Of a stretch of DNA of 64,000 bases, positions 58,458-58,867 are shown piece after piece. The notes under the pieces were generated by a model. The model searched no databases. It worked only from the letters and a program-made list of their open reading frames with translations, and was not told the DNA's origin. Each line of letters opens with the position of its first letter. Position 1 is the stretch's first letter. The position numbers and the translations under genes were made by a program. Origin of the DNA: Octopus sinensis (lineage: Eukaryota); the NCBI RefSeq assembly GCF_006345805.1, contig NC_043016.1:27280001-27344000 (forward strand), given 5' to 3'.

Positions 58458-58823
58458 TCTCTTTTACTCTTTTACTCTTTTATTTGTTTCAGTCATTTGA
58501 CTGTGGCCATGCTGAAGCACCGCCTTTATAGTTGAGCAAATCGATCCCAGATCTTAGTCTTTGTAAGCCTAGTACTTATTCTATCAGTCTCTTTTGTCGA
58601 ACCGCTAAGTTATGGGGACGTAAAGACACCAGCATCAGTTGTCAAGCGATGCTGAGGGAACAAACACAGACATATACACGCACATACATATATATATGGT
58701 GTAATGGTTAGCACTCTGGACTTTGAATCCAGCGATCCGAGTTCAAATCTCGGTGAGACCTAAGAGTGTTACTTTTTTAGCATGGAAAGCGGACGTTAAA
58801 CGATGATGATGATGATGATGATG

Positions 58824-58867
<44 letters not shown>

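Follow-up and report, generated by a model that had tools for sequence, protein, structure and literature searches.

A single-copy pre-tRNA-Gln/LINE chimera in a SINE of Octopus sinensis and related joins of Pol III RNAs to retroelements across its genome

The U6 chimeras of platypus and lizard are the closest known system to the insertion described here. U6-L2 and U6-Mon-1 chimeras of platypus and U6-RTE, U6-L2 and U6-AnolisSINE2 chimeras of Anolis were reported by Doucet et al. (2015; PMC4476161). As in the octopus genome, a 5'-truncated Pol III RNA extends to its U-run, beyond which either a short 3' segment of a stringent LINE or a SINE follows in the sense orientation; target duplications are short or absent, and the chimeras were ascribed to template switching (PMC4476161). 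The passenger in those species is U6 (40 chimeras in platypus), whereas here it is mostly an unprocessed pre-tRNA with its trailer, sometimes also with leader and intron, and at least 12 amino acids are represented. In human, 21 tRNA/LINE-1 loci are described in the available text of Law and Burns (2025; 10.1101/2025.02.02.635956). They likewise carry a tRNA before the LINE 3' end in one insertion, but are mostly antisense tRNA halves ascribed to twin priming, and the terms pre-tRNA, trailer and precursor do not occur in that text as available; by contrast, all assigned joins of the octopus genome are in sense and end at the terminator. In human U6/L1 chimeras made by RtcB ligation, the junction also follows four to five T of the Pol III RNA, but this route depends on the cyclic phosphate of U6 and was not shown for pre-tRNA in the accessible part of the report (Moldovan et al. 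2019; PMC6789731). PittSINE (Suh et al. 2017; PMC5729268) and RTE-derived SINEs (Kojima 2018; PMC5786205) have a tRNA head directly on a LINE tail, and SINE birth via a template switch onto tRNA is proposed in the portions of both papers that could be consulted. According to the same portions, these are amplified families whose founding event was inferred, whereas the insert described here is unamplified and has kept its terminator. Neither sense pre-tRNA-trailer/LINE-tail chimeras as a class nor any such chimera in cephalopods was found in the articles searched, though an earlier mention, for instance in Repbase notes or in older work (Buzdin 2002, 2003; Ohshima and Okada 1994), may exist. 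Mammalian tailless or pre-tRNA retropseudogenes, some of them precursor copies, were reportedly described by Schmitz et al. in 2004; these are said to lack a LINE tail and to be mobilized by L1 in trans. The octopus class is the pre-tRNA version of known Pol III RNA/LINE chimeras, and is distinguished by its precursor template and its scale.

The locus lies in a 64,000-nt stretch (G000:C20:27280001-27344000; hereafter the window) of the 2.72-Gb genome of O. sinensis. The insert occupies positions 58696-58825 of the window and consists, in this order and on the plus strand, of a 5'-clipped tRNA-Gln(TTG), a genomic trailer, a run of six T (T6), the 3' end of a LINE and (GAT)8. All of these parts had been named in the original prediction and were recovered at their positions. 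The tRNA copy (58696-58761) was recognized by Rfam as tRNA (RF00005; 48.8 bits, model positions 6-65), has unchanged A and B boxes and carries no CCA. The claim that it is unmutated and 6 nt short at its 5' end proved accurate, 66 of its 66 bases (100%) being identical to positions 7-72 of gene L003. ARAGORN called no tRNA across the window because the 5' acceptor strand of this copy is missing. The next 11 nt (58762-58772) are the 3' trailer of the precursor, which matches only gene L003, minus one A. The T6 (58773-58778) reproduces the Pol III terminator and is where the junction falls; its last T may, as judged from ordinary LINE copies with T at this position, be derived from the LINE. Tail 28-mer counts and folds assigned positions 58779-58801 to the last 23 nt of an RTE-type LINE, beginning in the loop of its terminal hairpin, and (GAT)8 (58802-58825) is the terminal repeat of this LINE, with an identical end in 30 of 30 sampled copies.

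The insert sits between a short and a long (TA)n within a SINE on the minus strand, in agreement with the predicted placement in the (TA)n of an opposite-strand SINE. The 3' half of the host SINE, together with the left portion of the microsatellite (58459-58695, minus strand), was delimited by sequence and by comparison with other copies, and the 5' half or head (58868-59029, minus strand) by sequence and comparison with other copies. Between insert and head lies (TA)21 (58826-58867), the right side of the target microsatellite, a spacer such as host-type copies carry. The host halves (58459-59029) stand in line around the insert, no target duplication being readable in (TA)n; in 71 host-type copies both halves are in line as well, with a median gap of 60 nt that is mostly microsatellite. 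The first two bases of the tRNA piece (from 58696) could equally belong to the (TA)n target. The host SINE head is about 91% identical to the best compared copy (median 87%). Since the host matches no other copy at more than 91% identity and both insert parts are unmutated, the insert is younger than its host. Of 24 public sequencing runs listed, seven hold at least half of the locus words. When the 50 bases beside the tRNA part were sought in four public runs, thousands of LINE-tail contigs were found and none across the trailer, which is neutral evidence because the filter drops records.

The postulated parent tRNA-Gln gene was found on C5 (L003; G000:C5:34164044-34164126, minus strand), with unique flanks and no tail behind it. 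Its body is identical to that of the insert, but its trailer does not agree entirely with the one predicted, being one A longer and followed by T5 instead of T6. These differences are run-length changes that could be real or assembly noise. Among all 79 pattern matches for this tRNA-Gln type, only L003 has a like trailer, and an exact search of the whole genome found no match to the exact insert trailer outside the window. The 24-mer spanning tRNA end and trailer occurs nowhere else in the genome, and the junction of the insert is single copy. L134 was rejected as a parent gene since it is itself chimeric. Three other tRNA-Gln copies (L004, L005 and L023) have a related trailer in common, for which no intact gene occurs among the listed matches; in L005, an inverted piece of the tRNA 5' end lies immediately upstream. 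Two further loci (L006:1502-1573 and L013:1501-1572) contain an intact tRNA-Gln with 72/72 and 71/72 identities to L003, respectively, and clearly decayed tails that start at the T-run. From their sequence, these two may be chimeric retrocopies retained as working tRNA genes.

The tail of the insert was said to be the extreme 3' end of the LINE at 57005-58082 and 62-350; indeed, it terminates both the element at 57005-58082 and the other piece, delimited here as 62-360. Its 28-mer has 8,411 exact matches in the genome. The element at 57005-58082 (plus strand), which served as tail reference, is an ordinary 1.1-kb 3' piece of the RTE-type LINE with a broken ORF end and a 3' UTR, and aligns with L072 over 1,148 nt. 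A Pfam search of the LINE end in the window gave nothing above the cut-off; relatives carry RVT_1, which was detected with an E value of 2.7e-12 in L206, a copy of the RTE-type LINE that owns the tail. The C-terminal part of this LINE resembles mollusc PHD/RVT clusters. We assign the donor putatively to the RTE clade from its reverse transcriptase (RT) domain and sequence motifs, and not from a tree. It is similar to an octopus RTE with a zinc finger described in the accessible part of PMC9115989, and the LINE sequence had no match in two of the eight supplements of that paper. Among 30 sampled copies of the RTE-type LINE, 29 reach well past the terminal hairpin. In the insert tail, the junction lies in the hairpin loop and only the 3' arm is left, the centroid fold being open (-1.6 kcal/mol); tail folds did not differ significantly from shuffles (z -0.57 and -1.43). 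A second tail (6,004 exact 27-mers in the genome), the form of which is common to a SINE, is owned by a LINE with a different RT; judging by its motifs, this LINE is presumably CR1/L2-like. By eye, 11 of 30 unselected copies of this CR1-type LINE (L141-L170) were cut exactly at the base of the terminal hairpin; two of the copies so cut are L163, which carries U6, and L151, which carries a tRNA 3' piece.

The original prediction spoke of a newly formed SINE. This was borne out for the layout, which is one from which SINEs are thought to arise, but not for the element itself: the insert is not a SINE, being single copy, with the terminator kept and the tail hairpin halved. Criteria that separate SINEs from sums of chimeras are given in PMC4494074 and PMC7245038. 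As in a tRNA-derived SINE with a LINE tail, intact A and B boxes are present in the tRNA head (identical to the gene at positions 7-72), but there is one copy instead of many uniform ones, and of the complete LINE recognition hairpin the 3' arm alone was kept. The T6 ahead of the tail predicts that Pol III stops before the tail, and the doubt voiced earlier about its passing the internal terminator was right. The insert does show the marks of a Pol III RNA/LINE chimera, namely copying up to the U-run, a 5'-truncated sense LINE end with its terminal repeat, a source gene elsewhere (L003 on C5) without LINE part, and, across the class, varied LINE breakpoints. A tailless tRNA retropseudogene was rejected because the full 3' end, the trailer and the LINE tail are present. 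The insert locus is an ordinary class member and would be a dead end.

The proposed search for other tRNA-trailer-RTE-tail junctions was successful and also yielded joins to other carriers. A tail-centred pattern combining T-arm and RTE-type tail gave nine matches, comprising the window, a second Gln, three Glu, one Ser, one Pro, one old Arg-like and one false match, with the isotypes of truncated copies assigned by eye. A second tail-centred search with the CR1-type tail gave 72 matches, of which 65 were examined. Fifty of these 65 consisted of a tRNA, a 6-31-nt T-rich genomic spacer and the tail; 12 amino acids were represented and none had CCA. Thirteen were without tRNA match and two 17-nt matches were discarded. 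SINE-type matches of this search, as well as L037, were discarded as false positives.

Since the tail searches were selected on the tail, a tRNA-centred control was run with a Glu pattern that required a T-run. The first 100 of 195 matches listed, covering about 48% of the genome, contained 33 dispersed copies. In 27 of these 33, the copy runs into a sense library element starting within 30 nt or less, and in none into an antisense one. The carriers were the CR1-type tail in nine cases, RTE in four, a SINE in 13, and a second tRNA followed by a SINE in one. The six remaining copies, unassigned by script, comprised an intact gene (L188), three copies that were element-like by eye (L187, L211 and L212) and two ambiguous ones (L194 and L201). 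Among clustered tRNA-Glu genes on C9, an element at the terminator was found in 0/55 (Fisher p 3e-17 versus dispersed copies). Thus, about four in five of the dispersed tRNA-Glu copies examined are chimeras; many pass ARAGORN and would inflate tRNA gene counts. For U6, 223 exact 3' ends are present in the genome; 22 of 27 dispersed copies examined run from the T-tract into a sense retroelement, as compared with 0/5 sampled array copies. Ten Glu and 11 U6 copies meet the 5' end of a whole SINE, and ordinary SINE heads start alike. At L215 (G000:C9:73965600-73967100), a sense chain of pre-tRNA-Glu, a pre-tRNA-Lys-like copy and a whole SINE was observed.

The carriers across the class include at least two LINE families and three SINEs. 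The RTE parts range from about 23 nt to more than 600 nt, and one begins inside the RT frame. The same trailer was found with different carriers or breakpoints (L036/L134; L041/L050), and a shared trailer with differing LINE breakpoints or carriers indicates that the events were independent. Eight near-identical joins on C27, C28 and small contigs were not accepted as separate events and were counted as at most one. Six of them (L120-L124 and L126), a near-identical short tRNA-like piece with a tail, were examined and have common flanks, and thus spread by DNA duplication. By extrapolation, the genome would hold several hundred joins of this kind. The insert is thus no rarity in kind: it is one of dozens of such joins seen and of probably hundreds, most of them made by elements other than the RTE-type LINE.

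The outline of what was copied was traced in copies with a compared parent. Identity ends in the parent T-run, and on the other side of the tRNA it extends for no more than 2-6 nt, with upstream and downstream identities of 6 and 24 nt for L015/L018, 2 and 8 nt for L017/L007, and 5 and 12 nt for L210/L217. These limits correspond to the extent of the nascent Pol III transcript and not of DNA. Many chimeric tRNA copies are 5'-truncated, and the RNA end used in the class is the precursor U-run and not CCA. Two copies (L044:1416-1522 and L062) keep an intron, so their template was unspliced; ARAGORN assigns them to Gln(CTG), whereas the body presumably resembles Leu.

The insert is a single-copy chimeric retrocopy of a tRNA-Gln precursor and a LINE 3' end, which probably arose within one insertion when the LINE RT jumped from LINE RNA onto the U-ending precursor. 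The LINE protein would have nicked the (TA)n of the host SINE and started at the (GAU)n end of its own RNA. After copying the repeat and 23 nt, the RT would have halted, either within the terminal hairpin or because a clipped RNA template ended there, added untemplated A and paired it with the 3' U-run of the nascent pre-tRNA. It would then have copied trailer and tRNA and, with the first 6 nt of the tRNA left uncopied, joined the target through a microhomology of 2 nt. This would be a dead end, as T6 would stop Pol III and the tail hairpin is lost; only rare products without terminator could act as SINE masters. According to the available text of PMC8857657, the untemplated additions of the R2 RT are mainly A, and its jumping depends on them. 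With an R2-like need for untemplated A, U-ending acceptors would be selected. In the same available text, A overhangs of three or more are unproductive in vitro, human chimeras arise by prior ligation, and it is doubted that jumping matters in vivo (PMC8857657). The inexact parent trailer (one A, one T) also speaks against the jump. By its sequence, the junction T-A-G also fits the parent DNA just past the terminator, and a short microhomology switch on read-through RNA is possible. The predicted switch from RTE RNA onto pre-tRNA remains the best reading, with strong genome-wide support, but DNA alone cannot separate a switch from RNA ligation.

If the pre-tRNA and a cut LINE RNA had been ligated first, by RtcB or another ligase, and the fused RNA retrotransposed in one pass, the DNA product would be identical. 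This course of events, proven for human U6/L1 in the accessible part of PMC6789731, is considered unlikely for the insert. Breakpoints cluster at the terminal hairpin base (the 11 of 30 unselected CR1-type copies, by eye, and 7 of 9 matches of the first search), where cleavage sites possibly lie, but cuts there are also common in copies without joined RNA. U6, a known RtcB substrate, behaves alike in this genome and could take either route. For RtcB, a cyclic phosphate and a 5'-OH are required, and a 5' triphosphate is a poor substrate, as stated in the accessible part of PMC6789731. For the insert, the cyclic phosphate would have to be on the pre-tRNA U-run and the 5'-OH on its partner. Pre-tRNAs are expected to end in U-OH, and Pol III RNAs to start with a triphosphate. 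Twenty-one joins are at whole SINE heads, the RNAs of which should likewise bear a triphosphate. As these joins at intact SINE heads and the tRNA-tRNA-SINE chain of L215 are end-to-end, an RT jump is favoured over RNA ligation; they bear on the question of whether template jumping occurs in vivo or RNA ligation only.

The classic model of SINE origin would make the insert a copy of a genomic master, i.e., a LINE stub behind a tRNA-Gln gene transcribed by Pol III read-through, and thus a true SINE copy. An unassembled master is conceivable, since the assembly contains no gene with exactly this trailer, but only one copy was found, L003 has no tail, none of the 55 clustered genes has an element at its terminator and T6 would halt transcription, which makes this origin very improbable. 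Two successive insertions, of a tail-less pre-tRNA copy and then of a LINE stub at its T-run, might be imagined because (TA)n and T-runs are common targets and RTE proteins are proposed, in the available part of PMC6007223, to contact stretches of T located about 10 nt away from the cleavage position. However, about 80% of dispersed copies would need such end hits, 27/27 of them in sense, while genes with the same T-runs were never hit; moreover, from the geometry of target-primed reverse transcription, priming at the T-run would be expected to leave an antisense element abutting it with its 3' end. The two-step insertion thus fails on the frequency of the joins, on their strict orientation and on the gene cluster being untouched, and its probability is slighter still. 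The lowest probability is given to an assembly artefact that joined repeats via microsatellites: (TA)n does flank the site, but no shared repeat is present at the tRNA-trailer-tail junction, and the same layout recurs at about 100 loci with different flanks.

Returning to the preferred reading, a jump of the LINE RT onto the precursor, a chimera on C17 (L012/L179; G000:C17:13197135) differs in the features that would make the insert a dead end. It comprises a full tRNA-Gln preceded by 6 nt from the leader of gene L007. Its trailer has four bases and lacks a T-run, and the LINE 3' UTR that follows, about 640 nt long, contains no TTTT. Its locus was assembled twice, as L010 on C9011 and L012 on C17, with 98.9% identity over 3 kb. 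The 5'-truncated LINE piece at 62-360 of the window (minus strand) has its junction in common with this tRNA-Gln/RTE chimera. The 8 nt with which it begins (360-353) are the same as the final four bases of the tRNA plus the four trailer bases in the C17 chimera, and the C17 junction 18-mer occurs at only one other genomic locus, positions 343-360 of the window. The chance of eight shared bases is 3e-5 per junction, for a pair that was noticed post hoc in one of the three LINE ends that the window contains. At the C17 junction, the LINE is of a variant found at 12 loci, eight of them internal to longer copies and four beginning at or beside the junction point. The C before the shared junction was rejected as a private C17 mutation, as it marks this small LINE variant. 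A tree built from the final 205 nt pairs L185 with the C17 copy as its sister (99/93) and attaches the window piece to this pair with weak support (85/73). Over about 205 nt, the window piece has nine mismatches to the C17 copy and eight to L183, as compared with three between L185 and the C17 copy, and tandem unit numbers differ. Descent of 62-360 directly from the C17 locus is unsupported since L185 is closer to that locus.

On these sequences, a shared chimeric master would fit 62-360 and its C17 relatives; the alternative is that the same precursor was captured repeatedly at the same point. The C17 chimera with 62-360, L183 and L185 is a possible SINE family of three or four members at birth. 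Tentatively, and with some doubt, the genome may be read as recording the whole path of SINE birth: end-to-end jumps of LINE RTs onto nascent, U-ending Pol III RNAs would be routine and would produce hundreds of tRNA-head/LINE-tail trials, nearly all with a terminator and dead, some surviving as new tRNA genes, and the terminator-less C17 chimera already copied to three or four members. How tRNA heads came to sit on LINE tails is usually inferred from old SINE families; here, unamplified intermediates are numerous and their parents traceable. The founding step of SINEs thereby becomes measurable in terms of the RNA end used, the LINE cut site and the terminator as the block to activation.

Irregular 5' junctions were observed at several loci. 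In the tRNA-Glu/RTE chimera L034, the 5' end adjoins an antisense CR1-type tail, resembling twin priming or a later insertion. In L125 and L193, the 5' bases of the tRNA itself recur as a short tandem repeat where the copy meets its 5' flank, which suggests slippage during the joining of the copy to the target. Tandem arrays were located at G000:C5:18.02-18.38 Mb, C9:76.0-76.1 Mb and C1:141.9 Mb; the array contents are tRNA-Gln (period of about 198 bp), tRNA-Asp (about 159 bp), tRNA-Glu (55 copies in 110 kb) and U6 (1.1-1.4 kb).
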